From Clostridia bacterium (GTDB lineage Bacteria; Bacillota; Clostridia; Saccharofermentanales; UBA5734): a DNA stretch of 64,000 bases. Made by a program: the position numbers and the translations under genes. Positions 1-20,606 of this stretch are shown here, in pieces. Location of the stretch: NCBI GenBank assembly GCA_040772685.1, contig JAXGXQ010000002.1, positions 170,094 to 234,093 on the forward strand, read 5' to 3'. Each line of letters begins with the position of its first letter. Within the stretch, counting starts at the first letter, position 1. The notes below the pieces were generated by a model, which saw only the letters and a list, made by a program, of their open reading frames with translations, was not told the DNA's origin and made no database searches.

Positions 1-59
1 CTCAAAAGTACGCTTCAGCTGAAGGCATCTATCCTGCACTTAATTGGGACAAACGCTGA
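1..59 (+). CDS. 3' end of a gene entering from the left edge (reads ...QKYASAEGIYPALNWDKR*); by position probably the solute-binding protein of the ABC operon that follows
   Basis: Open frame from the window edge to TGA 57-59. It ends ...NW.., like the SBP at 12870-14108 (...SIVNW*), and is followed by the same kind of hairpin before the first permease gene. Confidence 0.3.
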   Translation, partial: QKYASAEGIYPALNWDKR

Positions 60-100
60 CTATACAAAACTGACTGATTTTCGAACTGACCTTATTGGCA

Positions 101-131
101 GAGGGGTTCAGCGGCTGATGCTGAACCCCTC
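101..131 (+). promoter_or_regulatory. Perfect 12-bp intercistronic stem-loop GAGGGGTTCAGC-N7-GCTGAACCCCTC, no T-tract
   Basis: Read directly. It lies between the upstream stop and the first permease start; an analogous hairpin sits at 14138-14169. Confidence 0.6.
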
Positions 132-179
132 GCCTGCATAAGGCTGAACGAATATCTGGATGCTTAAGGAGTTAAGATC

Positions 180-1031
180 ATGCTAGTCCAGGTTCTGTTT
201 GAAGGATTGGCGATGGGAGCAGTATATGCACTGATCGCCATGGGTATCGCACTCGTTTGGGGCGTAATGAATATCCTGAGTTTTTCTCAGGGCGAATTCA
301 TGATGCTTTCCATGTACTTAACATTTTTATTGAACACGAAACTAGGTCTCGACCCCATTTTGTCTATACCTATCGTAATGGCTGTCATGTTCCTCTTTGG
401 TATGTTTATTTATCGTCTGTTGATCAGCCGCGCTTTACGCGGGCCAATTCTCTCGCAACGCTTAGTAACTTTTGCTTTAGGTATGGTGCTAATTAACACA
501 ATGCTTATGGGAGTAGGAGGACAGTACTGGAAGGTTCAGAATCTCATGTTTGAAGGGTCACTAGACCTTGGATTTGTTACCCTTAGCAAACAGAAGCTAG
601 TTCCAATAGTTGTATCTCTGGTTGTTACCGCTATCTTGTTTTTGTTCATGAACAAAACTAGAACTGGTAAATCAATCAGTGCGACTTCTCAAGATAAAGG
701 AGCAGCGGCCTTGATGGGTATTAATACCGAGAGAGCCTATATGATTGCTTTCGGTATATCGTCTGCAATTGCTGGTGCTGCCGGTTGTGCTCTTACTTAC
801 TACTACTATATTTCACCATCTGTTGGCGCTCCGTTTCTCATCTTCGGTTTTATCGCTGTCTGCCTCGGTGGTTTTGGCAGTATCTTCGGTGCGTTTGTTG
901 GCGGTGTCATCATGGGCCTGGTGGATCTATTTACCGGTACATATCTCAGCGTGTCATACAAATACCTCGCCGTAATGCTGATCTTCATGTTGATCGTGTC
1001 CTTCAAGCCTAAAGGGCTCTTCGGGAGGTAA
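180..1031 (+). CDS. LivH-like branched-chain/HAAT-family ABC transporter permease (set 1)
   Basis: 283-aa polytopic ORF with AAGGAG RBS 8 nt upstream. Paralogous to 14199-15065 and first of a permease-permease-ATPase-ATPase series. Confidence 0.9.
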   Translation: MLVQVLFEGLAMGAVYALIAMGIALVWGVMNILSFSQGEFMMLSMYLTFLLNTKLGLDPILSIPIVMAVMFLFGMFIYRLLISRALRGPILSQRLVTFALGMVLINTMLMGVGGQYWKVQNLMFEGSLDLGFVTLSKQKLVPIVVSLVVTAILFLFMNKTRTGKSISATSQDKGAAALMGINTERAYMIAFGISSAIAGAAGCALTYYYYISPSVGAPFLIFGFIAVCLGGFGSIFGAFVGGVIMGLVDLFTGTYLSVSYKYLAVMLIFMLIVSFKPKGLFGR

Positions 1032-1035
1032 ACAG

Positions 1036-2082
1036 ATGGAATTGAAAACATCTCTAAAACGCAATCGAACCTTTGTGATAGAGTTTGTCATAATCATGGG
1101 CATACTGATTATTGTGCCTATGTTTATGTCCCGCCCGTTCCAAATAAATGTTCTTATTCTTTCTGCTATCTGGGCAATTATGGGAATCGGTTGGAACTTC
1201 ATTGGTGGCTATACGGGGCAGGTTTCCAACGGCCATGCCATGTTTTACGCTATCGGGGCCTATGTCAGCGCCCTTGCTCTTAAGTGGTTTCAGATTTCAC
1301 CCTGGATCTCAATGTGGCTTGGTGTTGTAATTTCGATGGCCGTAGCCTTCATAATTGGACTGCCACTATTCCGACTGCGTGGGCACTACTTCGCGATTGC
1401 CACAATGGCTCTGGTTGAAAGTACCCGGGTTATCTTTTTGAACTGGGAATGGATTGGTGGTTCTACAGGAGTCAGCTTTTTTGAAAGGGATATGCCGCAA
1501 TGGTACACAATGCAGTTCGTGGAAAAGAAACCCTCCTACTACATCGCACTTGGCTTTATGGCGGCATTCATTTTGTTGACCAAGGCTATGGAAAAATCCA
1601 AATACGGCTATTATTTTCGGGCAATTAAAGCCAATCAGGATTCTGCCGAAAGCTCAGGCGTTAACGCTGCCCGTTATAAGTTGATCGCCTACATGATTAG
1701 TGCCGGTATTGTCAGCATAGGCGGTGCGCTTTACGCACAGTATATTCAGTACATCGACCCCGCCGTGCTTCTTCCATTAAGCAATTCGATGCTTATTGTT
1801 CTTGTATGCGTTATGGGTGGTATCGGAACTGTGTGGGGCCCCGTACTTGGCGCTTTCCTTATGACAGCTATTAATGAGTATACCCGGGCGTATTTTGCTA
1901 GATTCAGCGGTCTGAACCTTGTGATTTATGGCGTCCTTGTCATTCTAATCGTTCTTTTTATACCTAACGGCTTAATCTCTTTTGTAAATAAGGAGAAGAT
2001 AGAAAATTTCATGGCTCGTTTTCGTAAAAACAGACTGAAGACCGAAATGGCTTCCCCGAGTCAGAGAGATAGGGAGGACTAG
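1036..2082 (+). CDS. LivM-like HAAT ABC permease (set 1)
   Basis: 348-aa membrane ORF with GGGAGG RBS; family blocks GYTGQVSNGHAMFYAIGAY and LRGHYFAIATMAL. Confidence 0.9.
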   Translation: MELKTSLKRNRTFVIEFVIIMGILIIVPMFMSRPFQINVLILSAIWAIMGIGWNFIGGYTGQVSNGHAMFYAIGAYVSALALKWFQISPWISMWLGVVISMAVAFIIGLPLFRLRGHYFAIATMALVESTRVIFLNWEWIGGSTGVSFFERDMPQWYTMQFVEKKPSYYIALGFMAAFILLTKAMEKSKYGYYFRAIKANQDSAESSGVNAARYKLIAYMISAGIVSIGGALYAQYIQYIDPAVLLPLSNSMLIVLVCVMGGIGTVWGPVLGAFLMTAINEYTRAYFARFSGLNLVIYGVLVILIVLFIPNGLISFVNKEKIENFMARFRKNRLKTEMASPSQRDRED

Positions 2083-2085
2083 AGC

Positions 2086-2817
2086 ATGAGTAATCTGCTT
2101 GAAATCAAAAACGCCAGCAAATACTATGGAGGTTTAAAAGCAAATCATGATATATCCTTTGAGGTTGAAACCGGATCTATTGTCGGTGTAGTCGGACCAA
2201 ATGGAGCAGGTAAAACAACTTTGTTCAACTCAATCAGCTGTTCACATCCGCTTACATCTGGCCAGATTATATTTGATGGTAAGGATATTACCGGCATGAA
2301 GCCATATCAGGTTTGTAAACTTGGTATGGGCCGCACCTTTCAGATTCCCCAGGCGCTTGAGGATATGACTCTGTTGGAAAATATTATCGTCGGCGCTCTC
2401 GTCCACCGCAATAGCGTTTCAGATGCCGAAGCTCACGCACTGGAAGTTTCTGAATTCTGTGAATTGTCCGACTTCAACCATATGCTCGCCAAAAATCTCA
2501 ACGTTATGCAAAAGAAACGACTGGAGATTGCTCGTGCTCTCGGAGGTGACCCTAAATTACTGCTTCTTGATGAAACAATGGCCGGTTTGAATGGTATTGA
2601 ACGAATTAATGCCAATAAATTGATACGCAAAATAAACGCAAAGGGAATAACAATCCTGATGATCGAACATGTAATGGAAGTCGTGATGAACGTTTCTGAT
2701 AAAGTGGTAGTTATTGTTACAGGCAAGAAACTACTGGAGGATACGCCTAAAGTCGTATCGAGCCATCCTGATGTTATCGATGCTTACCTTGGAGGTGGAC
2801 ACAATGCTGGTAGTTAA
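2086..2817 (+). CDS. LivG-like ABC ATPase (set 1)
   Basis: Walker A GPNGAGKTT, Walker B LLLLDE, C-terminal DVIDAYLGG tail typical of LivG. Confidence 0.9.
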   Translation: MSNLLEIKNASKYYGGLKANHDISFEVETGSIVGVVGPNGAGKTTLFNSISCSHPLTSGQIIFDGKDITGMKPYQVCKLGMGRTFQIPQALEDMTLLENIIVGALVHRNSVSDAEAHALEVSEFCELSDFNHMLAKNLNVMQKKRLEIARALGGDPKLLLLDETMAGLNGIERINANKLIRKINAKGITILMIEHVMEVVMNVSDKVVVIVTGKKLLEDTPKVVSSHPDVIDAYLGGGHNAGS

Positions 2818-3511
2818 GAACCTTGTTGCTGGTTATTCGAAAATACCGGCAATCCACAATATTTCTTTCAAGGTCAACGAAGGCAAGATTGTTGCTTTGC
2901 TGGGTTCAAACGGCGCCGGCAAAACGACAGCCTTGCGTGCCATCATTGGCGCGATTCCAACCATGAGCGGAAGCATCGAATATAACGGTAATAGTATTGT
3001 TGGCTTGCCAAGTCACGATATGGTCGGAAAGGGAATCAGTATGGTGCCGGAAGGGCGACGCCTTTTTCCGAAGATGACAGTTATGGACAACTTAAAAATG
3101 GGAGCGTTTTCAATCAAAGACAAGGTGCGCATTCAGAAGAAGCTCGATGAAATCTTCGAAATATTTCCACGCCTGGCTGAACGCAAAAACCAGTTGGCTG
3201 GCACAATGTCCGGCGGCGAACAGCAGATGGTTGCGATTGGTCGTGGCTTGATGTCTTATCCTAAACTACTTATTCTTGACGAACCCAGTCTGGGCATAAT
3301 GCCAAAACTTGTCGCGGAGATTTTTGACTTCATTAAGAAAATTAATAAATCAGGCGTTACTATTCTGATCGTCGAACAGAACGCCAAGGAAACTCTGGAA
3401 TTCGCGAATTATGCCTATGTTATAGCCAACGGTGAAACCGTGATTGAAGGAACAAATATCGAATTGCTCAACAATGATCGTGTTCAAAAGATTTATCTAG
3501 GTATCGACTGA
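2804..3511 (+). CDS. LivF-like ABC ATPase (set 1)
   Basis: Walker A GSNGAGKTT, signature SGGEQQM, Walker B LLILDEPS. I moved the start to ATG 2804 (GGAGGTGG RBS, 14-nt overlap with the preceding gene) instead of the track start 2714. Confidence 0.88.
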   Translation: MLVVKNLVAGYSKIPAIHNISFKVNEGKIVALLGSNGAGKTTALRAIIGAIPTMSGSIEYNGNSIVGLPSHDMVGKGISMVPEGRRLFPKMTVMDNLKMGAFSIKDKVRIQKKLDEIFEIFPRLAERKNQLAGTMSGGEQQMVAIGRGLMSYPKLLILDEPSLGIMPKLVAEIFDFIKKINKSGVTILIVEQNAKETLEFANYAYVIANGETVIEGTNIELLNNDRVQKIYLGID

Positions 3512-3538
3512 GACGGCTGCTTCAAGGAGAACAGGAAT

Positions 3539-4543
3539 ATGAGACATAGTGAAAAAGAAATACTCGATGTGCTATCAAAAACATTGATAAAGAAAGGGCT
3601 TAATGCCTCTGACGCGCAAGACTGCGCCCAACTCCTGCTGGAAAACAGCCTCGATGGCATATACTCGCATGGTGTTAACCGCTTTCCCCGTCTGGTGTCA
3701 TACCTTGACAAAGGATACATCAAGCCGGATAAGAAGCCTGTGCTGGTGGAATCGCTGGGTGCGCTGGAAAAATGGGATGGTCAGCTGGGCATGGGCAACA
3801 CAAATGCGAAGCTAATGATGGAAAGAACGATTGAGCTTGCTCATCAATACGGCATAGGCTGCGTTGCACTGCGGAACACGAACCACTGGATGCGCGGCGG
3901 TGCCTATGGCCTGCAAGCAGCAGATGCCGGCTGTATTGGCATTTGCTGGACGAATACACAGCCGAATATGCCTGCCTGGGGTGCTAAAGATCGTAGAATT
4001 GGCAATAATCCTTTGATTATGACTGTACCTAAACCGGATGGCCACATAATGGTTGATGGGGCTATGGCACAGTTTTCATATGGTGCAATTGAAGCTGCGA
4101 AAATTGCGGGCCGTGAGCTGCCAGTGCCTGGCGGGTATGACTCTAAGGGAAACCTGACGCGCGACCCGGCCGAAATCGAAAAAACCTGGCGTGTCCTCCC
4201 AATTGGATTCTGGAAAGGCTCGGGGTTCTCTATTGCCATGGATCTGATTGCGGCTTGCCTCTCTGACGGGAACACAACCTGCAAAGTTGGCCAATTGAGT
4301 GAAGATGAATATTCACTTTCACAGGTGTTCATAGCTCTCGATGTCACAAAGGCAACACCAGGATATGCTGACCTGGTCGCCGAAACAGTAGCCGACATAC
4401 GGGCTTCAGAGCGCATTGACGAAGGGAGTCCGATCCTTTATCCGGGCGAAAAGGAATACCAGACACGTCTGGACAACCTTGCTAATGGAGTGCCAGTCGA
4501 GGATTCCGTATGGAATACAATAATTAATCTGCATAATGCTTGA
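3539..4543 (+). CDS. Ldh_2-family (malate/L-lactate dehydrogenase type 2) oxidoreductase, YiaK/DlgD-like (3-dehydro-L-gulonate 2-dehydrogenase-like), copy 1
   Basis: Blocks SHGVNRFPR, ALRNTNHWMRGG, GICWTN, WGAKDRRIGNNP and WKGSGFSIAMDLI match my recollection of E. coli YiaK. AAGGAG RBS. Confidence 0.8.
   Translation: MRHSEKEILDVLSKTLIKKGLNASDAQDCAQLLLENSLDGIYSHGVNRFPRLVSYLDKGYIKPDKKPVLVESLGALEKWDGQLGMGNTNAKLMMERTIELAHQYGIGCVALRNTNHWMRGGAYGLQAADAGCIGICWTNTQPNMPAWGAKDRRIGNNPLIMTVPKPDGHIMVDGAMAQFSYGAIEAAKIAGRELPVPGGYDSKGNLTRDPAEIEKTWRVLPIGFWKGSGFSIAMDLIAACLSDGNTTCKVGQLSEDEYSLSQVFIALDVTKATPGYADLVAETVADIRASERIDEGSPILYPGEKEYQTRLDNLANGVPVEDSVWNTIINLHNA
3541..4452 (+). repeat. Near-identical ~0.9-kb DNA repeat, partner at 18610-19521 (offset 15069)
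   Basis: By-eye alignment finds 4 substitutions across ~910 bp (3542, 3600, 3777, 4303). Identity then drops sharply from 4453 to the stop codons. The upstream sequences are unrelated. Confidence 0.85.
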
Positions 4544-4555
4544 AACAGGAAAATT

Positions 4556-5542
4556 ATGATGGATAAAAATAAACCAAAAGTATTTGTCAGCTATAAAATA
4601 ATGCCTGAAGCGGAGGCTGTTCTGCCAGAGTTCTGTGAGTACTCAAAATGGACCAGAGCAGGCACGCCGAGCGAAGACGAAATAATCACCCTTGCCTGGG
4701 GCGCGGATGCCCTGTTGGTAGATGGTGCTAATCCTATTAGCCGCAAGGTAGTTGAAGCCTTGCCGCGGTTGCGAATTGTGAGCAATGCCTCTGTTGGCTA
4801 TAACAACTTTGATCTTGCCGCAATGAAAGAACACAACATTATGGGAATGAATGTATCCGGAGCATTGGATGATTCTGTAGTCGATCTTGCCTTGGGCCTG
4901 ATCATTGCTTGCGGTCGACGCATATGTGAGCTTGACCAGCTTGTTAAAGCCGGACAGTGGCAGCTAGGTGGTGATGAAACCGAACACTTCGGCCAGGATA
5001 TCCACAATCAGACACTCGGGATTATTGGAATGGGAAGGATCGGCGAAAATCTGGCACGCCGCGCCCGTCTTGGACTCGAAATGAAAGTCCTTTATCATAA
5101 CCGAAACCGTAAGCCTGAAGCTGAAAAACGACTGAAAGTAACTTATGCCACCTTGGATGATCTGTTGGAAAGATCAGACTATGTAGTTTTAATAACTCCA
5201 GCAACTGCAGAGACAAAGCACTTAATGAATCGAGGAAACTTTGCCAGGATGAAACCAACAGCAAGCTTCATTAACGTATCACGTGGCCCTAATGTCGACG
5301 AGATTGCGCTTGCTGAGGCGTTGCAGAACAGGATCATTGCTTCGGCTGCCCTCGATGTATATCAACAAGAACCCATAAATCCGGACAGCCCCCTGCTGCG
5401 GCTGAAAAATCTTATCACCTTACCGCACATCGGTTCAGCCACTGCCGCAACACGTTTGAATATGAGCCTTACAGCCATTAATAATTTGCGTCAGGCCCTG
5501 GCGGGGGAACGTCCTGCTTTGATTGTACCGGAACTGCGCTAA
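4556..5542 (+). CDS. D-isomer-specific 2-hydroxyacid dehydrogenase (GhrB / 2-ketoaldonate / glyoxylate-hydroxypyruvate reductase-like)
   Basis: NAD fold GIIGMGRIGENLARRA, then SRG and the catalytic-His block LPHIGSAT. Confidence 0.85.
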   Translation: MMDKNKPKVFVSYKIMPEAEAVLPEFCEYSKWTRAGTPSEDEIITLAWGADALLVDGANPISRKVVEALPRLRIVSNASVGYNNFDLAAMKEHNIMGMNVSGALDDSVVDLALGLIIACGRRICELDQLVKAGQWQLGGDETEHFGQDIHNQTLGIIGMGRIGENLARRARLGLEMKVLYHNRNRKPEAEKRLKVTYATLDDLLERSDYVVLITPATAETKHLMNRGNFARMKPTASFINVSRGPNVDEIALAEALQNRIIASAALDVYQQEPINPDSPLLRLKNLITLPHIGSATAATRLNMSLTAINNLRQALAGERPALIVPELR

Positions 5543-5755
5543 TGCTGCATTTGAAGGTTTCTACAACAAATTAGCAAACAATATCTTTATTAAAACATTT
5601 CGGTCTCCCTCCATCAGAAAATAATGTCCCGATTTGTTGGTCTGGGCATTGTTTCTGCATGAACACACTCAAATTAGTGTTGTCAGGCAATTGCCGGTTA
5701 AAAGACCAGAGATGGTTTAAATTTGCCGTATTCACGGAAAAAAGGAAAAAGAGCT

Positions 5756-6517
5756 ATGATAAAGGAAATATCACTATCAGGTAAAACCGCGCTTATCACA
5801 GGTGGTGCCACTGGAATAGGGTTCGCGATTGCTTCTGAGATGATCGACGCCGGAGCTCATGTAATCATTGTCGGAAGGCGTGAAGCTGTACTTCAGGAAG
5901 CTGCAGAAAAACTCGGTTCAGCCTGCACTTGGCTGTCATTTGACATCACAAATTCAGAGGGGATCCCCGGTTACATCGCCGAAATTGAAGCAAAAACAGC
6001 GATAGATATTTTAGTCAATAATGCCGGCATCAACAACAAAAAAGATTATCTAGACTTCACGGCTACGGAATTCGACAGTATTGTAGCGACACAGGCAAAG
6101 GCGCCTTTTATGCTATCGCAAGCGGTAGCGCTCTATATGAAAGCCAGGGGCAAGGGCTGTATCATCCTGATTTCTTCGCTGGCAGCGATCCTCGGCATGC
6201 ACAACATCCAGGCTTACACTGTATGCAAAGCAGGCATAGTCGGCTTAGCGCGAAGCCTGTCACTTGATCTCGCACCACATGGCATCCGGGTCAACAGTCT
6301 TAACCCGGGCTTCGTCTATACTGACATGCTGCGTACAACCAACATTAAGACTCCCGAACGTCTTGAAGAAATATCTGGCCGTACGCCCCTGCGTGGTTTT
6401 ACCGAACCAAAAGACCTTGGTATGGCCGCGGCCTTCCTGGCTTCGGATGCTGCCCGTTTCATAACCGGTATTGACTTGGTTGTCGATGGCGGCATAAGCT
6501 CCTCGTTTTTAATCTAA
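5756..6517 (+). CDS. SDR-family oxidoreductase (gluconate 5-dehydrogenase / KduD-like)
   Basis: TGGATGIGFAIA cofactor motif, NNAG, catalytic YTVCKAG (YxxxK). Start set at ATG 5756 rather than the TTG at 5723. Confidence 0.85.
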   Translation: MIKEISLSGKTALITGGATGIGFAIASEMIDAGAHVIIVGRREAVLQEAAEKLGSACTWLSFDITNSEGIPGYIAEIEAKTAIDILVNNAGINNKKDYLDFTATEFDSIVATQAKAPFMLSQAVALYMKARGKGCIILISSLAAILGMHNIQAYTVCKAGIVGLARSLSLDLAPHGIRVNSLNPGFVYTDMLRTTNIKTPERLEEISGRTPLRGFTEPKDLGMAAAFLASDAARFITGIDLVVDGGISSSFLI

Positions 6518-6749
6518 GAATACTCTGCATAAACAGCAAAATACTGTATTTATCACTTTTTATCTTGTTTAACAAATGTTTATGAAGACAGCAAGTTACA
6601 AAACGAAAAAATTACGGTTATTAATAGAAAAACCAAAAAATGTAGGTAAATAAGGAAAAATAGTAGTAATAAATATGGATAATTATATAATAAAACATAA
6701 TAACGACTTCAGCCCAAAGCTTAGATTTAACACATTGGTGGTGAGATGA

Positions 6750-7205
6750 GTGTTGGATTTGATTGACATCAAAATTCTAAAGTGTTTGGAAAAGAATTCT
6801 CGGATTAACGCTTCAATAATTGGCGAACAGATCAATATGTCCGTTTCAGCAGTCATTGAACGGATCAGAAAAATGGAGACTTCAGGTGTTATTCGCAAAT
6901 ACACAATCGTGCTGGATAACAAAAAAATCAATAAGGATGTATCAGCTTATATTTCGGTCCGGTTGGACCATCCAAGGCACAATGATGATTTCGTGAAAGC
7001 GGTCGGGGGTATTCTTGAAGTAGTTGAATGCCACTATATCGCAGGCGATTATGACTTCCTTTTGAAAGTTATAACCGAGTCGACCGGCACACTGACGGAT
7101 TTATTGAACAAAATCAAATCGCTGGTAGGAGTGTCGTTAACCCGTACAGTTGTTGTTTTAAGTACTACTAAAGATGGGCAGATCGTTCTTCCGGATATCA
7201 AATAA
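6750..7205 (+). CDS. Lrp/AsnC-family transcriptional regulator
   Basis: N-terminal HTH LDLIDIKILKCLEKNSRINASIIGEQINMSVSAVIERIRKME plus a C-terminal RAM-like domain, 151 aa; GTG start. Confidence 0.85.
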   Translation: MLDLIDIKILKCLEKNSRINASIIGEQINMSVSAVIERIRKMETSGVIRKYTIVLDNKKINKDVSAYISVRLDHPRHNDDFVKAVGGILEVVECHYIAGDYDFLLKVITESTGTLTDLLNKIKSLVGVSLTRTVVVLSTTKDGQIVLPDIK

Positions 7206-7272
7206 TATTTTCTGGCAACACAAAAAATTAACACTCAAGTTTAAAAAATGAGCTGAATAACAGGAGGATCTT

Positions 7273-8445
7273 ATGATTATCGGCATTCCCAAGGAAATTA
7301 TGGCTGGCGAACAAAGAGTGGCAGGCACACCCGAGACGGTCCAAAAGATGATCGCGGATGGTAATACTGTCCTGGTAGAACAAAACGCGGGGGCGGGCGC
7401 TTTCTTTAGTGATGAGATGTACAGTGCAGCCGGAGCTGTGGTTATTTCCGATCCTGCCGATTTATTCCAGAGGGCAGAGGTTATTCTTAAGGTCAAGGAA
7501 CCACAGTTCAACCAACAGAAAAACCTGCACGAAGTGGACATGATGCACGCGGGGCAGTATCTAATAACCTTTATCCATCCAGCCACTCCTTCTAATCATA
7601 AAATGGTAAGGGATATGGCTCAAAAGGGCGTAATCTCCCTGACTCTGGATGGAGTGCCGCGTATCTCACGCGCTCAGAACATGGACGCTCTCACTTCGAT
7701 GAGCACCTGCGCCGGCTACAAGGGGATGCTGATGGCAGCCCAGGAAATGAGAAAATTCGTTCCGCAGATTTTTTGTGCTGTTGGCGCGATAAAACCAGCC
7801 AAGGCTCTGATTGTCGGAGCTGGTGTTGGCGGATTGCAAGCTATCGCGACCGCGAAGCGGCTGGGGGCAGTCTGCTATGCTCTAGATATTCGTCCAGCGG
7901 CAGTAGAACAAGCACAGTCTTTAGGCGCGAAGATTGTGGAAAGCAATATACCTGAAGAAGCTGCTGTTGGCCCCGGCGGTTATGCGAAACAATTGAACGA
8001 TGAATTGCTGGAAGCTGAGCGTGATGTCTTGCGCAAGGTTCTACCGGACATGGATATAGTCTTCTTGTCAGCACTGGTACCTGGACGTGTGGCGCCTGTT
8101 CTGATCACGGAGGATATGGTCGCATTGATGAAACCGGGTTCTGCCATGGTTGATATTTCAATTGATCAGGGTGGTAACTGTGCCGCTACTGTACCGGCAG
8201 AAACTGTTATGCAGGACGGCGTATCAATTTGCGGAATCAAAAACATTCCAGGTATGCTGCCAACCAGCGCGACCTGGATGTTCGCTTTGAATGTTTATAA
8301 TCTACTGAAATATCTGTCGCCGAATGGTGAAATAGTGCTTGATGAAAGCGATGAGATTGTACAGGGGATTCTTACAACTAAGAATGGCCAGGTTGTACAT
8401 CAAGGTGCTTTGGATGCAATGTCGAATTTGGCATATAGGAGGTAA
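7273..8445 (+). CDS. pntAA: NAD(P) transhydrogenase subunit alpha part 1
   Basis: AlaDH/PNT N- and C-domains, Rossmann GAGVGGLQAIATAKRLGA, AGGAGG RBS. Followed by the small membrane part and the beta subunit. Confidence 0.9.
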   Translation: MIIGIPKEIMAGEQRVAGTPETVQKMIADGNTVLVEQNAGAGAFFSDEMYSAAGAVVISDPADLFQRAEVILKVKEPQFNQQKNLHEVDMMHAGQYLITFIHPATPSNHKMVRDMAQKGVISLTLDGVPRISRAQNMDALTSMSTCAGYKGMLMAAQEMRKFVPQIFCAVGAIKPAKALIVGAGVGGLQAIATAKRLGAVCYALDIRPAAVEQAQSLGAKIVESNIPEEAAVGPGGYAKQLNDELLEAERDVLRKVLPDMDIVFLSALVPGRVAPVLITEDMVALMKPGSAMVDISIDQGGNCAATVPAETVMQDGVSICGIKNIPGMLPTSATWMFALNVYNLLKYLSPNGEIVLDESDEIVQGILTTKNGQVVHQGALDAMSNLAYRR

Positions 8446-8448
8446 TAT

Positions 8449-8742
8449 ATGAGTCCTCTACTTTTAGTATTGATTTTTATTGTCGCTACTCTTGTCGGCT
8501 ATAAGTTAATCAGCAATGTGCCTAGTTTGTTGCATACTCCACTGATGTCAGGCATGAACGCGTTGTCAGGCATCACAATTCTGGGAGCGCTTGCAGCAAC
8601 TGGGACTGCGGTTGCCACAGGAAGTCGGGTATTTGGCTATATGGCGATTATTCTCGCAATGCTGAACATTGCTGGCGGCTTTGGCGTAACCCATCGTATG
8701 CTGAAAATGTTTGTTCATAAGGAGCATGAGAGTAATGAATGA
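8449..8742 (+). CDS. pntAB: NAD(P) transhydrogenase subunit alpha part 2 (membrane)
   Basis: 97-aa, 3-TM protein with blocks LHTPLMSGMNALSGI and GGFGVTHRML; sits between pntAA and pntB. Confidence 0.88.
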   Translation: MSPLLLVLIFIVATLVGYKLISNVPSLLHTPLMSGMNALSGITILGALAATGTAVATGSRVFGYMAIILAMLNIAGGFGVTHRMLKMFVHKEHESNE

Positions 8743-10117: not shown

Positions 10118-10164
10118 GCCAGTATTGAGGCACGAGTAAAAACGGATACTGATTGATAACGCAT

Positions 10165-10201
10165 AGCCGCTGAAGCCTTACTCGCTTTAGCGGCTTTTTT
10201 C
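10165..10201 (+). terminator. Rho-independent terminator after pntB
   Basis: AGCCGCT...AGCGGCT stem followed by TTTTTT. Confidence 0.7.
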
Positions 10202-10287
10202 ATGACAAAAGGACATAGCATCTTTTCTTAGGACAGATTGCACAAGAACATGAGAAAATGATCGGCGTTTTGCGCTTTGCTTTTGTC

Positions 10288-10316
10288 TTGACACGCATAC
10301 TATGGTGAGTTAATCT
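10288..10316 (+). promoter_or_regulatory. Candidate sigmaA promoter of the LacI-family gene
   Basis: TTGACA (10288-10293), 17-nt spacer, TAATCT (10311-10316). Confidence 0.45.
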
Positions 10317-10324
10317 GATTCATA

Positions 10325-10338
10325 GAAACACGTGTAAC
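10325..10338. promoter_or_regulatory. Candidate LacI-family operator O1 (GAAACACGTGTAAC)
   Basis: Core ACACGTGTAAC is repeated exactly at 11385-11395. ACACGTGT is palindromic. The site lies just downstream of the -10. Confidence 0.5.
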
Positions 10339-10368
10339 TGTAATAATAATAGAGGTTATAAGCGATTT

Positions 10369-11367: not shown

Positions 11368-11381
11368 TTTTTTACACTAAA

Positions 11382-11395
11382 TCTACACGTGTAAC
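11382..11395. promoter_or_regulatory. Candidate LacI-family operator O2 (TCTACACGTGTAAC)
   Basis: Same ACACGTGTAAC core as O1, 66 nt upstream of the first structural gene, overlapping a TTTACA -35-like hexamer (11371-11376). Confidence 0.5.
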
Positions 11396-11460
11396 TAAAT
11401 GGCAATAATAAGGCATGAAATCCATTGGCTACGAAAGGTTTGATAACTAAAAGGAGTGAC

Positions 11461-12747: not shown

Positions 12748-12869
12748 TTCAGCTACAATTATTCGTACCCAAAACGGATCAGTATGACAGGAGGAAAATT
12801 TTACAGCACTGAACCGGAAACAACAAGATCACCGCGCTGAAAATTAATAATCAATCGGGAGGATTGGAA

Positions 12870-14108
12870 ATGAAAAAAATAATTTCACTTGCGCTCGTTT
12901 TAACCTTTATGCTGATTCTAGTTGCCGGATGTGGCACTACAGCAACAACCACCGTCTCTACTACTGTTGGCACAACTACGGCATCTGCTGGTGGCACTAC
13001 TACAGCTGGTACAACATCTGCAGCGACTACATCCTCGCCTTCTGCCAGTGAATTCATTCTTGGCGTGGTAAGTCCTCTTACCGGTTCAGGAGCGACCAGT
13101 GGCGCTGTTCAGGCTAACGCCGTAAAACTTGCAGTTAACGAAATTAACGCTGCCGGCGGCATCAATGGAACAATTCCGATCAAACTGATTTCGGAAGATG
13201 ATGAAGGTGTGCCAGCCAAGTCGGTCACTGTCACCCAGAAACTTGTCAATCAGGACAAAATCCACGCTATGATTGGTGCGCTTAACAGCTCATGTACTCT
13301 GGCAAACATGGAAGTCACAAAGGCCGCCAAAATTCCCCAAATCACGCCGTCATCCTCTAATGCTACGATTACTGAACAGGGTAATCAGTTCATTTTTCGG
13401 ATGACCGCTACTGATACGACCCACGCCAGAACTCTTCTGAAATATGCCAGTGAATCAATGAAAGCCAAGAAGGTCGCGATGATTTATGAGACAAGCGACT
13501 TCGGCACAGGAGCGTTCAATATTGTAAATGGCCTCGTTAATGAATATGGCCTCGAGATGGTAACAAGCGAAGTCTACAATTCAGGTGAAACGGATTTCAG
13601 CGTTCAGCTAACCAAATTAAAGAATGCCGCTCCTGATGTCATTATCCTCTGGGGTTATTACACCGAAGCCGCTCAGATCCGCAAGCAGGTTAAGCAGTAC
13701 GCGATTGATATCCCAATGATCGGTACCGGATACAATTCACCGGCTCTCATTGAGCTAGGCGGCGAAGCGGTTGATGGACTGATTTTCACTACCGCATTTA
13801 CCAATGCGAATCCCGATCCAAAAGTCCAAGCTTTTGATAAAAAGTACATGGAACAGATGAAATCCAGCTACGACCAAAATGCTCCTCAATCCTACGATAC
13901 AGTCTATATTATCGCCGATGCGGTCACTCGCGCTATCAAAGACGGTAAAGACTGGAGCAACGGAGAAGTGCTACGCGGTTATATTGCGTCTACCAAAGAC
14001 TACAATGGAGCCACAGGTATCACAAACTTCGATGAAAAAGGTGAAATGCTTAAAGACCTCATGGTTGTCAAGATTGTCGATGGCAAACACTCCATCGTGA
14101 ACTGGTAA
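12870..14108 (+). CDS. HAAT-family (Peripla_BP_6 / LivK-like) ABC substrate-binding lipoprotein
   Basis: Signal peptide plus lipobox LVAGC, Thr/Ala-rich linker, then a LivK-like fold (GVVSPLTGSGA..., NEINAAGGING). GGGAGG RBS before ATG 12870. Confidence 0.88.
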   Translation: MKKIISLALVLTFMLILVAGCGTTATTTVSTTVGTTTASAGGTTTAGTTSAATTSSPSASEFILGVVSPLTGSGATSGAVQANAVKLAVNEINAAGGINGTIPIKLISEDDEGVPAKSVTVTQKLVNQDKIHAMIGALNSSCTLANMEVTKAAKIPQITPSSSNATITEQGNQFIFRMTATDTTHARTLLKYASESMKAKKVAMIYETSDFGTGAFNIVNGLVNEYGLEMVTSEVYNSGETDFSVQLTKLKNAAPDVIILWGYYTEAAQIRKQVKQYAIDIPMIGTGYNSPALIELGGEAVDGLIFTTAFTNANPDPKVQAFDKKYMEQMKSSYDQNAPQSYDTVYIIADAVTRAIKDGKDWSNGEVLRGYIASTKDYNGATGITNFDEKGEMLKDLMVVKIVDGKHSIVNW

Positions 14109-14137
14109 TTGAGATTTTCTGATTTAACTGACAGGTC

Positions 14138-14169
14138 CGGGTGCTAGTCCCCCTTTAGGCTAGCACCCG
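14138..14169 (+). promoter_or_regulatory. Perfect 10-bp intercistronic stem-loop CGGGTGCTAG-N12-CTAGCACCCG, no T-tract
   Basis: Read directly. Same SBP-to-permease junction position as the hairpin at 101-131. Confidence 0.6.
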
Positions 14170-14198
14170 AGCCGGCATCGAGAAGAGAGGAAGAAGAC

Positions 14199-15065
14199 AT
14201 GCTCATACAACAAATCCTCAATGGACTTACCATGGGCAGTATTTATGCATTGCTGGCGATCGGCGTTACAATGATATATAAGGCCTTGGGCATGCTCAAC
14301 TTCGCACATGGCGATACTATGATGGTTGGCGCGTTCATCTGCCTGACATTGTACAAAGCCGGGATCCCCTTAGTAGGAGCGATTTTGATTACTGTCCCAT
14401 TGACTGCCGGAATCGGGTTTTTTCTGGAAAGATTCTTATATCGCCGTTTAGAGTTTAGTTCATTTACTAACCTCCTGATCGCCACTGTGGGAGTATCGTT
14501 TGTAATGCGGAACAGCAGTATTGTAATTTGGGGTACTAATCCGCAACTGTTTCCACAAATCTTTAGTACTGAACCGATAAAAGTTGGTAACTTTTTGATT
14601 CTGCCGCAAAGCATCGGCATTATACTTATATCTGCGTTGTTCGCCATTGGATTACAGATATTTTTCTATAAAACTAAGAACGGCAAATGCATGCGCGCTG
14701 CGTCTACTGACGCTGAAGGGGCAGCCATGATGGGGATAAATGTTGCCAAAGCCAGATTTTTGACCTTTGGCATTAGTGCCGGCTTTGCTGCAATTGCTGG
14801 TATCCTGCTGGCACCGATGTCTTATGCTCGTATTGACATGAGTGTCCTGGTTGGTCTCAAGTCTTTCGCGGCGGCAGTTCTTGGTGGTTTCGGTAACCTT
14901 TTGGGTGCGATGGTTGGCGGAATTATCCTTGGATTGGTCGAATCACTGGGCGCCACCTACATATCTACCGCTTACAAAGACATCCTGTCTTTCCTAGTTC
15001 TCTTCTTGGTACTTTATTTCAAACCAGCCGGTCTCTTTGCCAAGAAAATTGAGCAAAAGTTATAA
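14199..15065 (+). CDS. LivH-like HAAT ABC permease (set 2)
   Basis: 288-aa membrane ORF, paralog of 180-1031. Confidence 0.9.
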   Translation: MLIQQILNGLTMGSIYALLAIGVTMIYKALGMLNFAHGDTMMVGAFICLTLYKAGIPLVGAILITVPLTAGIGFFLERFLYRRLEFSSFTNLLIATVGVSFVMRNSSIVIWGTNPQLFPQIFSTEPIKVGNFLILPQSIGIILISALFAIGLQIFFYKTKNGKCMRAASTDAEGAAMMGINVAKARFLTFGISAGFAAIAGILLAPMSYARIDMSVLVGLKSFAAAVLGGFGNLLGAMVGGIILGLVESLGATYISTAYKDILSFLVLFLVLYFKPAGLFAKKIEQKL

Positions 15066-15077
15066 GGAGGGGTTGGT

Positions 15078-16058
15078 GTGAATAAAAAAGTTGTTTCTGC
15101 TATCAAGTACATTATATTCGCGGTTTTTCTGCTAATCTTGCCCAGAGTCTTGCCAAACCAGTACATTGTTCAAATCGTAAACATGATTCTCATATACGTG
15201 ATTCTTGCCACCGGGGTTAATATCCTGACTGGATACACAGGGCAGCTTTCTTTGGGGCAAGCAGCGTTTTTCGGCATTGGCGCTTATACAGCCGCGATAC
15301 TGAATAAGAATTTTGGACTGCAGTTTATCTCACTGATTCTGATTTCAGCCTTCGTAACCGCGATTTTTGGTGTGATCCTCTCAGTGCCAGCACTAAAGGT
15401 CAAAGGCAGCTACCTCGCCCTGATAACAATCGGGTTTGGAGAAATAGTGCGGATTCTAATGGTCAATTGGGTGCAGCTTACTAGAGGCCCCGCGGGCATA
15501 GTCGGTATCGAGGCGCCCAGAATCTTCGGTATCACCTTTGATGACCTGAATAAATACTACTATCTTATTTTGTTTTTTGTGATTATCGGTTTGCTATATC
15601 AAAAAATCCTTATTGAATCCAGAATTGGCCGGGCTTTCATCGCTATCCGGGAGGATGACACCGTTGCTGAACTAACTGGTATTAATATCACTGAGTTCAA
15701 GGTAAAGGCTTTTGTAATAGGCGCTGTTTATAGTTCTGTCGCTGGTGTTTTGTACGCAATGATGATCAGGTATGTAAGCCCAGACAGCTTCACTGGCAAT
15801 GATTCCAGCATAATTCTCTGGACAGTGATAATTGGCGGCATTGGAACACTTGCCGGACCTGTAGTCGGTGCGATAGTTATGACAATTCTGCCTGAAGCAC
15901 TCCGTGGGATCGGCAATATGCGCATGGTAATTTTTGGGATTGTGCTGTTGATCGTGATAATTAAATATCCTTCAGGACTGACTCCTTATTTTATCAAGTT
16001 TAAAGACTATATCTGGTCAACTATTACAAATAAAAAAACGCTTCCGGCGAGAAAGTGA
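15078..16058 (+). CDS. LivM-like HAAT ABC permease (set 2)
   Basis: GTG start after AAGGAGGGG; blocks GYTGQLSLGQAAFFGIGAY and LKGSYLALITIGFGEI. Confidence 0.9.
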   Translation: MNKKVVSAIKYIIFAVFLLILPRVLPNQYIVQIVNMILIYVILATGVNILTGYTGQLSLGQAAFFGIGAYTAAILNKNFGLQFISLILISAFVTAIFGVILSVPALKVKGSYLALITIGFGEIVRILMVNWVQLTRGPAGIVGIEAPRIFGITFDDLNKYYYLILFFVIIGLLYQKILIESRIGRAFIAIREDDTVAELTGINITEFKVKAFVIGAVYSSVAGVLYAMMIRYVSPDSFTGNDSSIILWTVIIGGIGTLAGPVVGAIVMTILPEALRGIGNMRMVIFGIVLLIVIIKYPSGLTPYFIKFKDYIWSTITNKKTLPARK

Positions 16059-16067
16059 GGTAAGAAC

Positions 16068-16841
16068 GTGGCAATCCTGACATTGACGGATATTTCCAAA
16101 AAATTCGGCGGACTTGCTGCCGTATCCGACCTCAATCTTCAGGTCGAAGAAGATACCATATCTGCCCTGATTGGCCCGAACGGGGCTGGTAAAACAACCG
16201 TTTTCAATATGATTACCGGTGTATATCAAGTGACGAGCGGCAGCATCACATACGATGGCAACAACATATGCGGTCTGGCGCCACATAAAATTGTAGAGAA
16301 AGGCATAGCTCGAACTTATCAAAATATCCGATTATTCAAGAAAGCCAGCGCATTGGAAAATGTAATGACCGGTTTTCATTCAAGAACCAAGGCTGGTTTG
16401 TTTAACATTATCTATAATCGGAAAGCAATGCTGGCAGAGGATGCCAAGGTTAAGCGGGATAGTCTTGACATTCTTGATTATCTGGGTATTGCTGACATGC
16501 GTGACTACCAGGCACGTAACCTGCCATACGGCCATCAGAGATTACTTGAAATAGGCAGAGCGCTGGCTACCCAACCGAAGCTTCTGCTGCTAGACGAGCC
16601 GGCAGCCGGTATGAATGAAAAAGAAAAGATCTCTTTAATCGATACAATCCGAAGAATTCGTGGCGACTTCAAGCTTACAGTATTACTTGTTGAACATGAC
16701 ATGCAGCTCGTAATGAACATATCCGACAAGATCACCGTGCTGGATTTTGGCAAGTGGATCGCGGAAGGTACTCCAGAGTCGATTCAGAGAAACGATAAAG
16801 TAATTGATGCTTATCTTGGAAGGGGTGAAAAGCAAGGATGA
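16068..16841 (+). CDS. LivG-like ABC ATPase (set 2)
   Basis: Walker A GPNGAGKTT, Walker B LLLLDEPAAG, tail VIDAYLG; GTG start. Confidence 0.9.
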   Translation: MAILTLTDISKKFGGLAAVSDLNLQVEEDTISALIGPNGAGKTTVFNMITGVYQVTSGSITYDGNNICGLAPHKIVEKGIARTYQNIRLFKKASALENVMTGFHSRTKAGLFNIIYNRKAMLAEDAKVKRDSLDILDYLGIADMRDYQARNLPYGHQRLLEIGRALATQPKLLLLDEPAAGMNEKEKISLIDTIRRIRGDFKLTVLLVEHDMQLVMNISDKITVLDFGKWIAEGTPESIQRNDKVIDAYLGRGEKQG

Positions 16842-17569
16842 ATGAACGCAATGCAATATTGAAAATTGAAAACCTTGTTTCCTCTTACGGATTAATTAAA
16901 GCATTAAAAGGAATCTCAATGGAGGTTAGACAAGGCGAGCTGGTTTCATTGCTTGGATCAAACGGCGCCGGGAAATCGACTTTGCTTAAATCAATTATTG
17001 GGATGGTCCATATTGATTCGGGAAGCATAAAATACGAAGGTCAGGAACTAGTGGGCAAAAAAAGCCATCAAATTATTCCTTGCGGAATTTCATTGGTTCC
17101 TGAAGGACGCAAGATATTTGCTGATCAGACAGTTACCGAGAATTTGGAAATTGGTACTTTTTTCACAAAAAATAATAGAAAACGTAACAGTGAGATCTTA
17201 TGCAATGTTTTCGAGGTGTTCCCACGACTCTACGAACGCAGAAACCAAATGGGAGGAACCCTTTCCGGCGGCGAACAACAAATGTTAGCGATTGGCAGGT
17301 CAATGATGTCAGATCCCAAATTGCTCTTGCTTGACGAACCGTCTATGGGACTTGCTCCAATAATTGTCGAGCAGGTGTTCCAGGTTTTGCAACGTGTTAA
17401 ACAAACTAATGTTTCAATTCTGCTAGTTGAGCAAAACGCACGTATGGCGCTAAAGATTAGCGACCGGGCATACGTCCTTAATACAGGCGTTATAACAGCG
17501 GAAGACACAGGAGCCAATATGGCTGATAGCAGCGTTCTTCAGGAAGCTTATCTCGGCAAGAAACAATAA
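16838..17569 (+). CDS. LivF-like ABC ATPase (set 2)
   Basis: Walker A GSNGAGKST, signature SGGEQQM, Walker B LLLLDEPS; ATGA overlap with the previous gene. Confidence 0.9.
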   Translation: MNERNAILKIENLVSSYGLIKALKGISMEVRQGELVSLLGSNGAGKSTLLKSIIGMVHIDSGSIKYEGQELVGKKSHQIIPCGISLVPEGRKIFADQTVTENLEIGTFFTKNNRKRNSEILCNVFEVFPRLYERRNQMGGTLSGGEQQMLAIGRSMMSDPKLLLLDEPSMGLAPIIVEQVFQVLQRVKQTNVSILLVEQNARMALKISDRAYVLNTGVITAEDTGANMADSSVLQEAYLGKKQ

Positions 17570-17663: not shown

Positions 17664-18563
17664 ATGAACCTCGAAAATGTCAAATTGAACCTGGATACGA
17701 AGCTAGTGCTGAATGTCGGGTTCCCTATGGGTAAAACAAATGCCCCCCGGGTTTACAATAAATTATTCAGTGTTCGTGACATGAATGCGATTATGCTGCC
17801 TGTCGAGATTCATAAAGGTGAGCTTAAAAGCTTTATGGAAGCAGTTCGGACATTGAATATTCGTTATTTATGCCCCACGATGCCGCATAAAGCTGACATT
17901 ATTGAGTATCTAGACGATGTAGACGAGTATTCTCGCCTTTTCAAATCGGTAAACGCGATTAGAATAGACGATGAGGGAATATCACATGGAACAGGTATGG
18001 ATGGCAAGGGCGCTGTCCGCGCGTTAACAGATGCCGGGGTGGAACTAGAGGGCCGTGAAGCTATGATGATCGGCGCCGGCAGCATCAGCGGCGTTATCGG
18101 CCTGGAATTGGCACGAAAAGGTGTTCGGAAATTGACACTGTTAAACCGAACCGTTGATAAAGCTGAAACAATCACTCGGATACTGAATGAGCATACTGAT
18201 ATGCAAGCAGACGCAATAGTTTCCAGCCCTGAAAATCTGGACAAGATTTCGAAAACGGCTGACGTTTTATTGCAAGCAACACCTCTAGGGATGGCTGGCT
18301 ATGAGCACACTCATCCTTACCTGGATTTCATCAACCAGTTGCCGGATGACGCAACTGTTTTTGACGTTATTATCAATCCACCGGATACGCCGGTTATTGC
18401 TCGCGCCAAAGCTAGAAATCTGCAAACAGTGCCGGGCATGAACATGCTGGTTGGTCAGATGTCCGAAATTTTTAAGTTTCTTTTTGATGTTACGCTAACA
18501 CGGGAAGACAAAGCTTCCTGCATAGATGAGCTTTGTTCTTACCTTGGATTAAAGATTTCCTGA
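17664..18563 (+). CDS. Shikimate/quinate dehydrogenase-family (AroE/YdiB-like) oxidoreductase
   Basis: N-terminal substrate-domain blocks (NAIMLPVEI, N.RYLCPTMPHK), GTGMDG, Rossmann GAGSISGVIG; 299 aa. Confidence 0.75.
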   Translation: MNLENVKLNLDTKLVLNVGFPMGKTNAPRVYNKLFSVRDMNAIMLPVEIHKGELKSFMEAVRTLNIRYLCPTMPHKADIIEYLDDVDEYSRLFKSVNAIRIDDEGISHGTGMDGKGAVRALTDAGVELEGREAMMIGAGSISGVIGLELARKGVRKLTLLNRTVDKAETITRILNEHTDMQADAIVSSPENLDKISKTADVLLQATPLGMAGYEHTHPYLDFINQLPDDATVFDVIINPPDTPVIARAKARNLQTVPGMNMLVGQMSEIFKFLFDVTLTREDKASCIDELCSYLGLKIS

Positions 18564-18607: not shown

Positions 18608-19606
18608 ATGCGACATAGTGAAAAAGAAATACTCGATGTGCTATCAAAAACATTGATAAAGAAAGGGATTAATGCCTCTGACGCGCAAGACTGCGCCCAA
18701 CTCCTGCTGGAAAACAGCCTCGATGGCATATACTCGCATGGTGTTAACCGCTTTCCCCGTCTGGTGTCATACCTTGACAAAGGATACATCAAGCCGGATA
18801 AGAAGCCTGTGCTGGTGGAATCGCTGGGTGCGCTGGAAAAATGGGACGGTCAGCTGGGCATGGGCAACACAAATGCGAAGCTAATGATGGAAAGAACGAT
18901 TGAGCTTGCTCATCAATACGGCATAGGCTGCGTTGCACTGCGGAACACGAACCACTGGATGCGCGGCGGTGCCTATGGCCTGCAAGCAGCAGATGCCGGC
19001 TGTATTGGCATTTGCTGGACGAATACACAGCCGAATATGCCTGCCTGGGGTGCTAAAGATCGTAGAATTGGCAATAATCCTTTGATTATGACTGTACCTA
19101 AACCGGATGGCCACATAATGGTTGATGGGGCTATGGCACAGTTTTCATATGGTGCAATTGAAGCTGCGAAAATTGCGGGCCGTGAGCTGCCAGTGCCTGG
19201 CGGGTATGACTCTAAGGGAAACCTGACGCGCGACCCGGCCGAAATCGAAAAAACCTGGCGTGTCCTCCCAATTGGATTCTGGAAAGGCTCGGGGTTCTCT
19301 ATTGCCATGGATCTGATTGCGGCTTGCCTCTCTGACGGGAACACAACCTGCAAAGTTGGCCAATTGAGTGAGGATGAATATTCACTTTCACAGGTGTTCA
19401 TAGCTCTCGATGTCACAAAGGCAACACCAGGATATGCTGACCTGGTCGCCGAAACAGTAGCCGACATACGGGCTTCAGAGCGCATTGACGAAGGGAGTCC
19501 GATCCTTTATCCGGGCGAAAAAGAGTACCAGACGCGTCTGGACAATCTTGCCAATGGTGTGCCGGTCGAGGATTCCGTATGGAAAACAATTTTGAGTTTA
19601 CAGTGA
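18608..19606 (+). CDS. Ldh_2-family YiaK/DlgD-like oxidoreductase, copy 2
   Basis: Protein almost identical to 3539-4543 except L21I and the last ~10 residues. It has its own GGAGG RBS. Confidence 0.8.
   Translation: MRHSEKEILDVLSKTLIKKGINASDAQDCAQLLLENSLDGIYSHGVNRFPRLVSYLDKGYIKPDKKPVLVESLGALEKWDGQLGMGNTNAKLMMERTIELAHQYGIGCVALRNTNHWMRGGAYGLQAADAGCIGICWTNTQPNMPAWGAKDRRIGNNPLIMTVPKPDGHIMVDGAMAQFSYGAIEAAKIAGRELPVPGGYDSKGNLTRDPAEIEKTWRVLPIGFWKGSGFSIAMDLIAACLSDGNTTCKVGQLSEDEYSLSQVFIALDVTKATPGYADLVAETVADIRASERIDEGSPILYPGEKEYQTRLDNLANGVPVEDSVWKTILSLQ
18610..19521 (+). repeat. Partner of the 3541-4452 near-identical repeat
   Basis: See 3541-4452. Confidence 0.85.
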
Positions 19607-19643
19607 AAGATTATAGAAAAACGAAATCAATGAGGTGATTAAA

Positions 19644-20606
19644 ATGACAAGCATTTATCCTGGCTGCAAAATACTAGTTGAAGTTTGCGCTGAATGTAAG
19701 AAAGACGAAAAAATTCTGATTATTACAGATAATTACAGCATGGAAATTGGGATGGCCATGTGGGCTGCGACCGAGGGATACCCCAACAGAAGCATGATTC
19801 TGATGGATGACCGCACTGCCCATGCCGAGGAACCAGCTCCACTAGTAAGAGCGGCAATGATGGAAGCAGATGTTCTCTTCAATGCGACTAAGTTCTCGAT
19901 CAACAATACACAAGCTCGCCAGCTCGCCTGCAAAAATGGCGCCAGAAGTTGTAACATGGCAGATTATTCACTCGAAATGCTGGAAGACAGCGGCCTGTTT
20001 ACAGATTATGAAGAAGCCCGCCGCATGGTCGATCACGTAATAAGCCGTTTACCCGGCAAGGTCGCCCATGTCACAACACCAGGTGGTACTGATTACACCA
20101 CCAACATTGAAGGCGCTGAAGTGTTCCCCCAATATGGACGCAGCTTGGTACCAGGGCAATCGTCTTCACCGCCTGATATCGAAGCAGCGGTTTACGGCCG
20201 TCCGGGCTACGGCGATGGCGTAATTGTGGCGGATGCTTCCATGACACACCCCGATCTTGGCATTGTCGAAGACGATCCTGTAACTATGAAGGTTAAGGAC
20301 GGCACTGTGTACGAAATTACCGGTGGGAAAAACGCTGAAACACTTAACAAGATTCTCGCTCAATATGATGACAAGCGCGTTTATAATGTTGGCGAGATAG
20401 GCGTGGGTCTTAACAAAGCCTGCAAGCTTTCGGGCCGCATGTTGGAGGACGAGGGGATTTATCGCACTGTACACTTGGCGCTTGGCAGTAATGTCTGGAT
20501 TGGCCCTGGCGACTGCGCCTTCCATCTCGATATGATGATGTGGAACCCTACCCTCACAATTGATGACAAAGCAGTATTAAAAGACGGCGAAATTGTCTGG
20601 GACTGA
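19644..20606 (+). CDS. Short M29 (aminopeptidase T/AmpS)-fold protein, NicX-like size class; function unknown
   Basis: 321 aa, with family-like blocks PGGTDYT..., GVIVADAS, EIGVGLN, HLALGSN. Start set at ATG 19644 (GAGGTG RBS). Confidence 0.6.
   Translation: MTSIYPGCKILVEVCAECKKDEKILIITDNYSMEIGMAMWAATEGYPNRSMILMDDRTAHAEEPAPLVRAAMMEADVLFNATKFSINNTQARQLACKNGARSCNMADYSLEMLEDSGLFTDYEEARRMVDHVISRLPGKVAHVTTPGGTDYTTNIEGAEVFPQYGRSLVPGQSSSPPDIEAAVYGRPGYGDGVIVADASMTHPDLGIVEDDPVTMKVKDGTVYEITGGKNAETLNKILAQYDDKRVYNVGEIGVGLNKACKLSGRMLEDEGIYRTVHLALGSNVWIGPGDCAFHLDMMMWNPTLTIDDKAVLKDGEIVWD

Follow-up and report, generated by a model that had tools for sequence, protein, structure and literature searches.

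Two YiaK/DlgD-like genes at separate loci of the window, the whole 64-kb stretch of DNA analysed here, have very probably undergone interlocus gene conversion, in which the resident copy B was written over approximately 900 nt of the interior of copy A before the window and the related contig L081 diverged. Copy A is a mosaic whose breakpoints lie within two narrow intervals, and both loci also carry the gene in a sister lineage. The resident copy B appears to have been the donor. The two genes form the sole long repeat within the window, and no third copy was found there.

The two copies (copy A, 334 aa; copy B, 332 aa; Table 1) were compared without gaps at a fixed offset of 15069. Gene position 1 denotes the first base of the ATG, and winA and winB denote the window's copies A and B. 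Only four mismatches occur in the first 914 nt, at gene positions 4, 61, 240, and 765 (window coordinates 3542, 3599, 3778, and 4303), and identity over 910 nt is 99.6%. A sequence-only reading of the window had reported this near-identity, with four differences over ~910 nt, and had located two of the mismatches correctly (3542, 4303); the other two, given as 3600 and 3777, were each off by one. It had also described substitutions every few bases from 4453/19522, which correspond to eight mismatches in the following 69 nt (gene positions 915, 918, 927, 939, 945, 951, 957, and 978; window coordinates 4453, 4456, 4465, 4477, 4483, 4489, 4495, and 4516), every one of them in a third codon position and the first seven synonymous. 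Divergence along the gene is strongly non-uniform, with the best breakpoint after gene position 914 (4/914 versus 8/69 mismatches, Fisher p = 1.6e-7). The dS between the copies is 0.014 in the tract (codons 1–304) and 0.68 in positions 913–981. The tails after position 978 are ~40% different, and beyond gene position 983 (window 4522 on) the copies mismatch at almost all bases and are essentially unalignable. The C-termini differ as the sequence-only reading had given them (copy A ...VWNTIINLHNA*, copy B ...VWKTILSLQ*). Identity between the copies starts at the start codon. The sequence 5' of the ATG is unrelated between the loci, which have no flanking DNA in common, and between the clusters the liv-type permeases and ATPases share only 30, 30, 37, and 47% protein identity and almost no DNA similarity; the unrelated upstream regions and the DNA-level divergence of the liv-like genes had been recognised from the sequence alone.

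Table 1 Features of the two gene clusters in the window
Feature	Position	Strand	Evidence
Ldh_2/YiaK-like copy A, putative recipient	3539..4543	+	PF02615 E 2e-103; NF009750; site table and triplet test
Putatively converted tract in copy A, gene positions 5–914	3543..4452	+	winA = winB at 83 informative sites
A-type 3' end kept by copy A, gene positions 915–1005	4453..4543	+	Identical to L042A/L164; tail NTIINLHNA*
Ldh_2/YiaK-like copy B, putative donor; putative donor stretch 18612–19521	18608..19606	+	First 242 nt orthologous to L163
Cluster A liv-type ABC transporter: two permeases, two ATPases; directly 5' of copy A	180..3511	+	
D-2-hydroxyacid dehydrogenase, directly 3' of copy A, A-context marker	4556..5542	+	PF02826, PF00389
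Cluster B liv-type transporter: binding protein, two permeases, two ATPases	12864..17569	+	Order as in L082
Shikimate-dehydrogenase-like, directly 5' of copy B, B-context marker	17664..18563	+	PF08501, PF01488
NicX-like gene directly 3' of copy B	19635..20606	+	Homologues carry PF26233

Both proteins match PF02615 (346 bits versus a cut-off of 38.8), and copy A scores 444 bits against NF009750, the 3-dehydro-L-gulonate 2-dehydrogenase equivalog (cut-off 316). Copies A and B belong to the same protein family as Escherichia coli YiaK/DlgD, a 2,3-diketo-L-gulonate reductase, whose structures 1nxu and 1s20 were matched by copy B with E = 5e-105; the label 'YiaK/DlgD-like' is thus a fair description of what both genes putatively encode. 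In E. coli, yiaK sits in the yiaK-S sugar utilisation operon. The neighbours here are instead liv-type ABC transporters, a 2-hydroxyacid dehydrogenase, a short-chain dehydrogenase/reductase (SDR), a shikimate-dehydrogenase-like gene, a NicX-like gene, and a class-V aminotransferase, and because of this different context the substrate of both enzymes may differ from that of YiaK. The SDR gene also lies 3' of copy A, beside the D-2-hydroxyacid dehydrogenase gene. Both copies are operon-internal, with gaps of 12 and 28 nt to the next gene, and a promoter and terminator scan near either copy returned nothing above shuffled expectation. The NicX-like protein had no match in the Pfam and NCBIfam copies used, though its homologues carry PF26233. 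It is 89% identical to its L082 homologue, while the neighbouring shikimate-dehydrogenase-like and Ldh_2 proteins are 70% and 84% identical to theirs. Between the clusters lie PntA/PntB-type transhydrogenase genes (7273–10117), flanked by an AsnC-type regulator upstream and a LacI-type regulator downstream and followed by a strong terminator-like hairpin (10165–10195).

Five assemblies proved informative for the two loci. The metagenome contig L081, from JGI 3300061362, is 99.72% identical to window positions 1130–13403 (12,274 nt, 34 mismatches, no gaps) and holds copy A in the window's synteny. The sister lineage is represented by L042 and L164 for copy A and by L163 for copy B. L042, a contig of the Oscillospiraceae MAG CAYPHB01, is 93.5% identical to window positions 1–4521 in the A context and stops within copy A at gene position 983. 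L164 contains gene positions 328–1005 of copy A and downstream genes, and has two mismatches to the L042 copy (L042A) over the shared 656 nt. L163 contains a shikimate-dehydrogenase-like gene and, behind it, the initial 242 nt of copy B. L163 and L164 are from a common Logan sample (SRR8925743) but not necessarily from one genome. The gene order of the cluster A liv genes and copy A is the same in L042 and L081, and the D-2-hydroxyacid dehydrogenase gene 3' of copy A is kept in L081 and L164. In L082, which is more distant, the whole B cluster is present at 70–78% nucleotide identity, with a 332-aa gene ending in ILSLQ*; copy B shares this tail with L082, P0004, and P0005, and P0003 has the variant ILSLR. 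The shikimate-dehydrogenase-like gene precedes the Ldh_2 gene in L082, L083, L011, L002, and L163, and the NicX-like gene follows it in L082 and L168, with an AlaDH-like gene in between. The closest other homologues (71–84% amino acid identity) are mostly located behind a shikimate-dehydrogenase-like gene, i.e., in the B context, and the A context was seen in L081, L042, and L164 only. A scan of metagenome contigs returned no relative with >75% amino acid identity, and exact matches were found neither for the two window proteins, searched with their stop symbol, nor for the cluster representative P0001. A search for the missing 3' half of the sister-lineage copy B through the NicX-like neighbour returned only relatives with ~77% nucleotide identity. 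L168 (positions 1–5064, ~75% nucleotide identity) has a hybrid order of a livF gene similar to that of cluster A, SDR, Ldh_2 with a B-type tail, AlaDH-like, and NicX-like genes; the transporter that accompanies the Ldh_2/AlaDH/NicX module thus varies from organism to organism.

The A and B loci both carry the gene in the sister lineage, and both therefore predate the split between the window and the L042/SRR8925743 lineage. Locus B is older still, as its presence in L082 places it before a much deeper split. The window's copy A shows two different affiliations along its length. At the 93 sites where winB and L042A differ, winA is like winB at 83 and like L042A at positions 4 and 61 and at the last eight consecutive sites; that all of the last eight informative sites switch parent has a triplet-test probability of P = 4.4e-10. 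The identity with winB holds at every one of the 83 informative sites from position 24 to position 900. All A copies (winA, L042A, and the L081 copy, L081A) have A at position 4 and all B copies (winB, L163) have C, and the difference at position 61 is a change private to winB. Counted over the whole comparison, winA and L042A differ at 85 sites. From position 901, winA shows no difference to L042A as far as that contig extends (983) and none to L164 through 1008. The distances of winA to winB and to L042A are 0.007 and 0.094 in segment 5–303, 0.000 and 0.025 in segment 304–659, 0.004 and 0.199 in segment 660–900, and 0.091 and 0.000 in segment 901–977. Inside the tract, the two paralogues of the window are thus closer to each other than winA is to its orthologue L042A, and differ at three interior sites (3599, 3778, and 4303), whereas outside of it (position 4 and positions 901–1008) winA retains locus-specific A sequence unlike winB. 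The 5' junction falls within window positions 3543–3561 and the 3' junction within 4439–4452.

Seven bases 3' of the junction interval, a perfect palindrome of 14 nt, CCAGACGCGTCTGG, occurs in copy B (19528–19541); its counterpart in copy A (4459–4472) is CCAGACACGTCTGG. This palindrome is not conserved in L082, and tying it to the tract end would be pure speculation.

The 99.6% identity over 910 nt, beginning at the start codon, would also be expected if the ORF of one locus had recently been duplicated into the other cluster, where no such gene had existed before. Such a fresh duplication is extremely improbable given that the sister lineage has the gene at both loci and that position 4 and the last 105 nt of winA are orthologous to the sister A gene and not to copy B. 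Moreover, the tails differ by ~40%, the flanking DNA of the loci is unrelated, and divergence along the gene is far from uniform. The sequence-only reading had regarded the genes as older paralogues of which the 5' 90% was homogenised by gene conversion, and had argued against a fresh duplication; the occurrence of both loci in related assemblies and the mosaic copy A support it.

The most likely direction of the proposed conversion is B into A. Over its 242 nt, L163 has three mismatches to winB, four to winA, and 21 to L042A, corresponding to a dS of 0.037 to winB and of 0.53 to L042A. In this comparable stretch, positions 1–242, copies A and B of the sister lineage are distinct and winB matches the sister-lineage B copy. 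As the B copy of the sister lineage is window-like and L042A is not, overwriting of the interior of copy A by copy B would be the simplest reading. Across positions 243–914, the direction is suggested by the coincidence of boundaries and by parsimony. Conversely, a native copy A could have overwritten copy B, with L042A merely being a diverged orthologue of winA, and the dS of livG and livF between the window and L042 (~0.4) indeed resembles that between winA and L042A in positions 1–300 (0.55). This opposite direction is unlikely: it does not explain why the B-context copy in L163 resembles the window's sequence and not L042A, and it makes a coincidence of the fact that the identity between copies A and B ends (914) within 14 nt of where that between winA and L042A starts (901). 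The end of L163 at position 242, just before a difference between the types at 243, also fits the presence of both types in the sample. L042A and the B type have the 41-nt stretch 202–242 in common, and Logan assemblies use k = 31; we infer that L163 ends at a k = 31 graph fork caused by both types.

Conversion of copy A by copy B is dated by two positions inside the tract. The bases at 240 and 765 are derived and common to winA and L081A, which places the event before the split of the window and L081. It is also later than the divergence from the L042 lineage.

Near-identical repeats are easily mis-assembled, both copies are known from assemblies alone, and the contigs of the sister lineage are interrupted within the gene (L042 at 983, L163 at 242, and L164 starting at 328), so the mosaic could in principle stem from reads of one copy having been threaded or polished into the other. 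We consider such an artefact very unlikely, as the independent assembly of L081 shows the mosaic copy A with A-specific bases at 240 and 765, and the stretches shared by A and B types at the junctions are just 19 and 14 nt long, below usual assembly k-mers. In contig coordinates, the breaks lie at 8614 (L042 end), 1324 (L163 end), and 1 (L164 start), all within this gene. At both 983 and 242, the very next base is one at which A and B differ, as expected for graph forks at a part-shared repeat. We rejected the L042 end at 983 as proof of homogenised copies in L042, which would need A/B identity of at least the k-mer length before 983; this argument is also weakened by the Logan contig L164, which continues unbroken through position 983.

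The 3' edge of the tract differs between the window and L081. Within the gene, L081A and winA differ at position 70 and at seven sites in 915–957, and the B-like stretch of copy A in L081 reaches position 957–977. Two histories need equal numbers of events. In the first, the ancestral tract ended at 901–914 and L081 later received a second B-into-A patch within 766–977; it fits the data as well as the second, in which the ancestral conversion extended to ~977 and the window's copy A later regained an A-type patch of no more than 108 nt (from 901/915 to at most 1008) from an L042-like strain. We hold the second history only tentatively, at somewhat less than an even chance. It accords with the match of L081A to winB at all seven sites across 915–957, where winA matches L042A, and short patches of recombination between strains do exist, as in window positions 12111–12171. 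Against it, a second B-into-A conversion in L081 explains the same data with a donor already in the cell. A switch of the assembly path in L081 is a third possibility for 915–957. The second history concerns the 3' boundary alone and is compatible with our best explanation, and the main tract stands under either history. The sharp 3' boundary of the sequence-only reading therefore holds insofar as there is an edge at 914/915, but this is perhaps the edge of a later recombination patch and not the end of the tract. Over the 61 nt of the patch at 12111–12171, in the class-V aminotransferase gene (11425–12747), the window and L081 have 11 mismatches against a background of ~1 per 700 nt. The patch probably reflects short recombination between strains; a donor was searched for in the window and not found.

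Divergence between L042A and the B type is itself uneven, with dS of 0.55 in positions 1–300, 0.13 in 301–660, 1.29 in 661–900, and 0.53 in 901–981 (chi-square on third positions, p = 2e-8). This suggests earlier exchanges of differing age, and, like the patch in L081, it hints at a history with more than a single event. In every segment but the tail, the distance between A and B types (0.03–0.20) is lower than that of either to L082 or L168 (0.16–0.33), and the paralogy, or its last homogenisation, is therefore younger than the divergence from L082 and L168. Around the gene, dS between the window and L042 is 0.05 for livH, 0.41 for livF, ~0.4 for livG, 0.08 for the downstream dehydrogenase gene, and 0.02 for the second gene downstream of copy A. 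Along the alignment of window positions 1–4521 with L042 positions 4094–8614, divergence is ~1.5% in 1–1600 and ~10% in 1600–3538, and it is low again 3' of copy A. Such mosaic divergence indicates frequent homologous recombination in the population. Since the window and L042 are themselves mosaic, part of the divergence between winA and L042A could be ordinary allelic divergence.

We propose that two paralogues had fixed positions in two unrelated liv-type transporter operons, and that in the ancestor of the window and L081 homologous recombination copied the donor stretch of copy B over the corresponding tract of copy A (Table 1). This would have been a non-reciprocal ectopic gene conversion, presumably RecA-dependent, that would have left the original first four bases and the original 3' end of copy A in place. 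Subsequently, copy A would have gained two synonymous changes (3778, 4303) and copy B one change (18667, Leu21Ile). The tract would be confined between the start codon and gene position 983 because homology ends there. The sequence-only reading had raised selection acting on this enzyme; selection is not needed, since across the two clusters only these two genes are similar enough in DNA sequence for recombination, which would by itself make the event specific to this enzyme. Between the A-type and B-type proteins, 11 of 327 residues are different, and dN is 0.0175 for the whole gene and 0.004–0.06 by segment; with so few differences, the swap was probably near-neutral, and we invoke no selection.

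It is possible, though rather doubtful, that the pair undergoes repeated, ongoing conversion with tract ends differing between co-existing strains (914 in the window, 957–977 in L081) and that the 15-kb interval is prone to deletion or amplification. If conversion were repeated, the pair would allow ectopic conversion to be measured in nature, in a lineage of uncultivated Oscillospiraceae. It is predicted that the 15 kb between the 910-nt direct repeats could plausibly be deleted or amplified; they contain the transhydrogenase genes, two regulators, the aminotransferase gene, and transporter B. The value of the case is mainly practical, and it opens no new question. Short-read assemblies will collapse or break at the two genes, as L042, L163, and L164, all ending within the gene, illustrate, and a tree made from this gene would mislead, as copy A would reflect orthology at its two ends only. 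The case also shows that conversion can target whichever pair keeps enough identity, without selection.

In bacteria, dispersed repeats are well known to exchange sequence non-reciprocally by homologous recombination, tuf genes and rRNA operons being examples (PMC6053082, PMC8022953). Concerted evolution of tufA and tufB by gene conversion is covered by Lathe and Bork 2001 and Kondrashov et al. 2007, as surveyed in PMC6053082. The pair described here is like tufA/tufB in that two dispersed paralogues are located in different conserved genomic contexts, each copy resembles its partner in the genome more closely than its orthologue in another lineage, the similarity concerns synonymous and non-synonymous sites alike, and homology, hence the tract, is limited to the coding region. 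It is unlike tufA/tufB, a core translation gene, in being a putative catabolic oxidoreductase, in having undergone a partial conversion that left a diverged 3' end, and in showing the pattern in one lineage, with sister copies that differ over the comparable positions 1–242; long-lasting recurrent conversion of the tufA/tufB type spans many taxa, whereas the evidence here is from this one lineage. Ectopic conversion between rRNA operons and other repeated genes is attributed to Santoyo and Romero 2005 as cited in PMC6053082, and rate estimates are available (PMC8022953). Shared with rRNA operons are the apparent non-reciprocal transfer between repeats of one chromosome, tracts of hundreds of bases, and variable tract ends that yield mosaics; unlike rRNA operons, the repeats here are protein-coding, operon-internal, and present in two copies only. 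The pair adds a further example to a known process; as bacterial gene conversion goes, the case is clean but ordinary.
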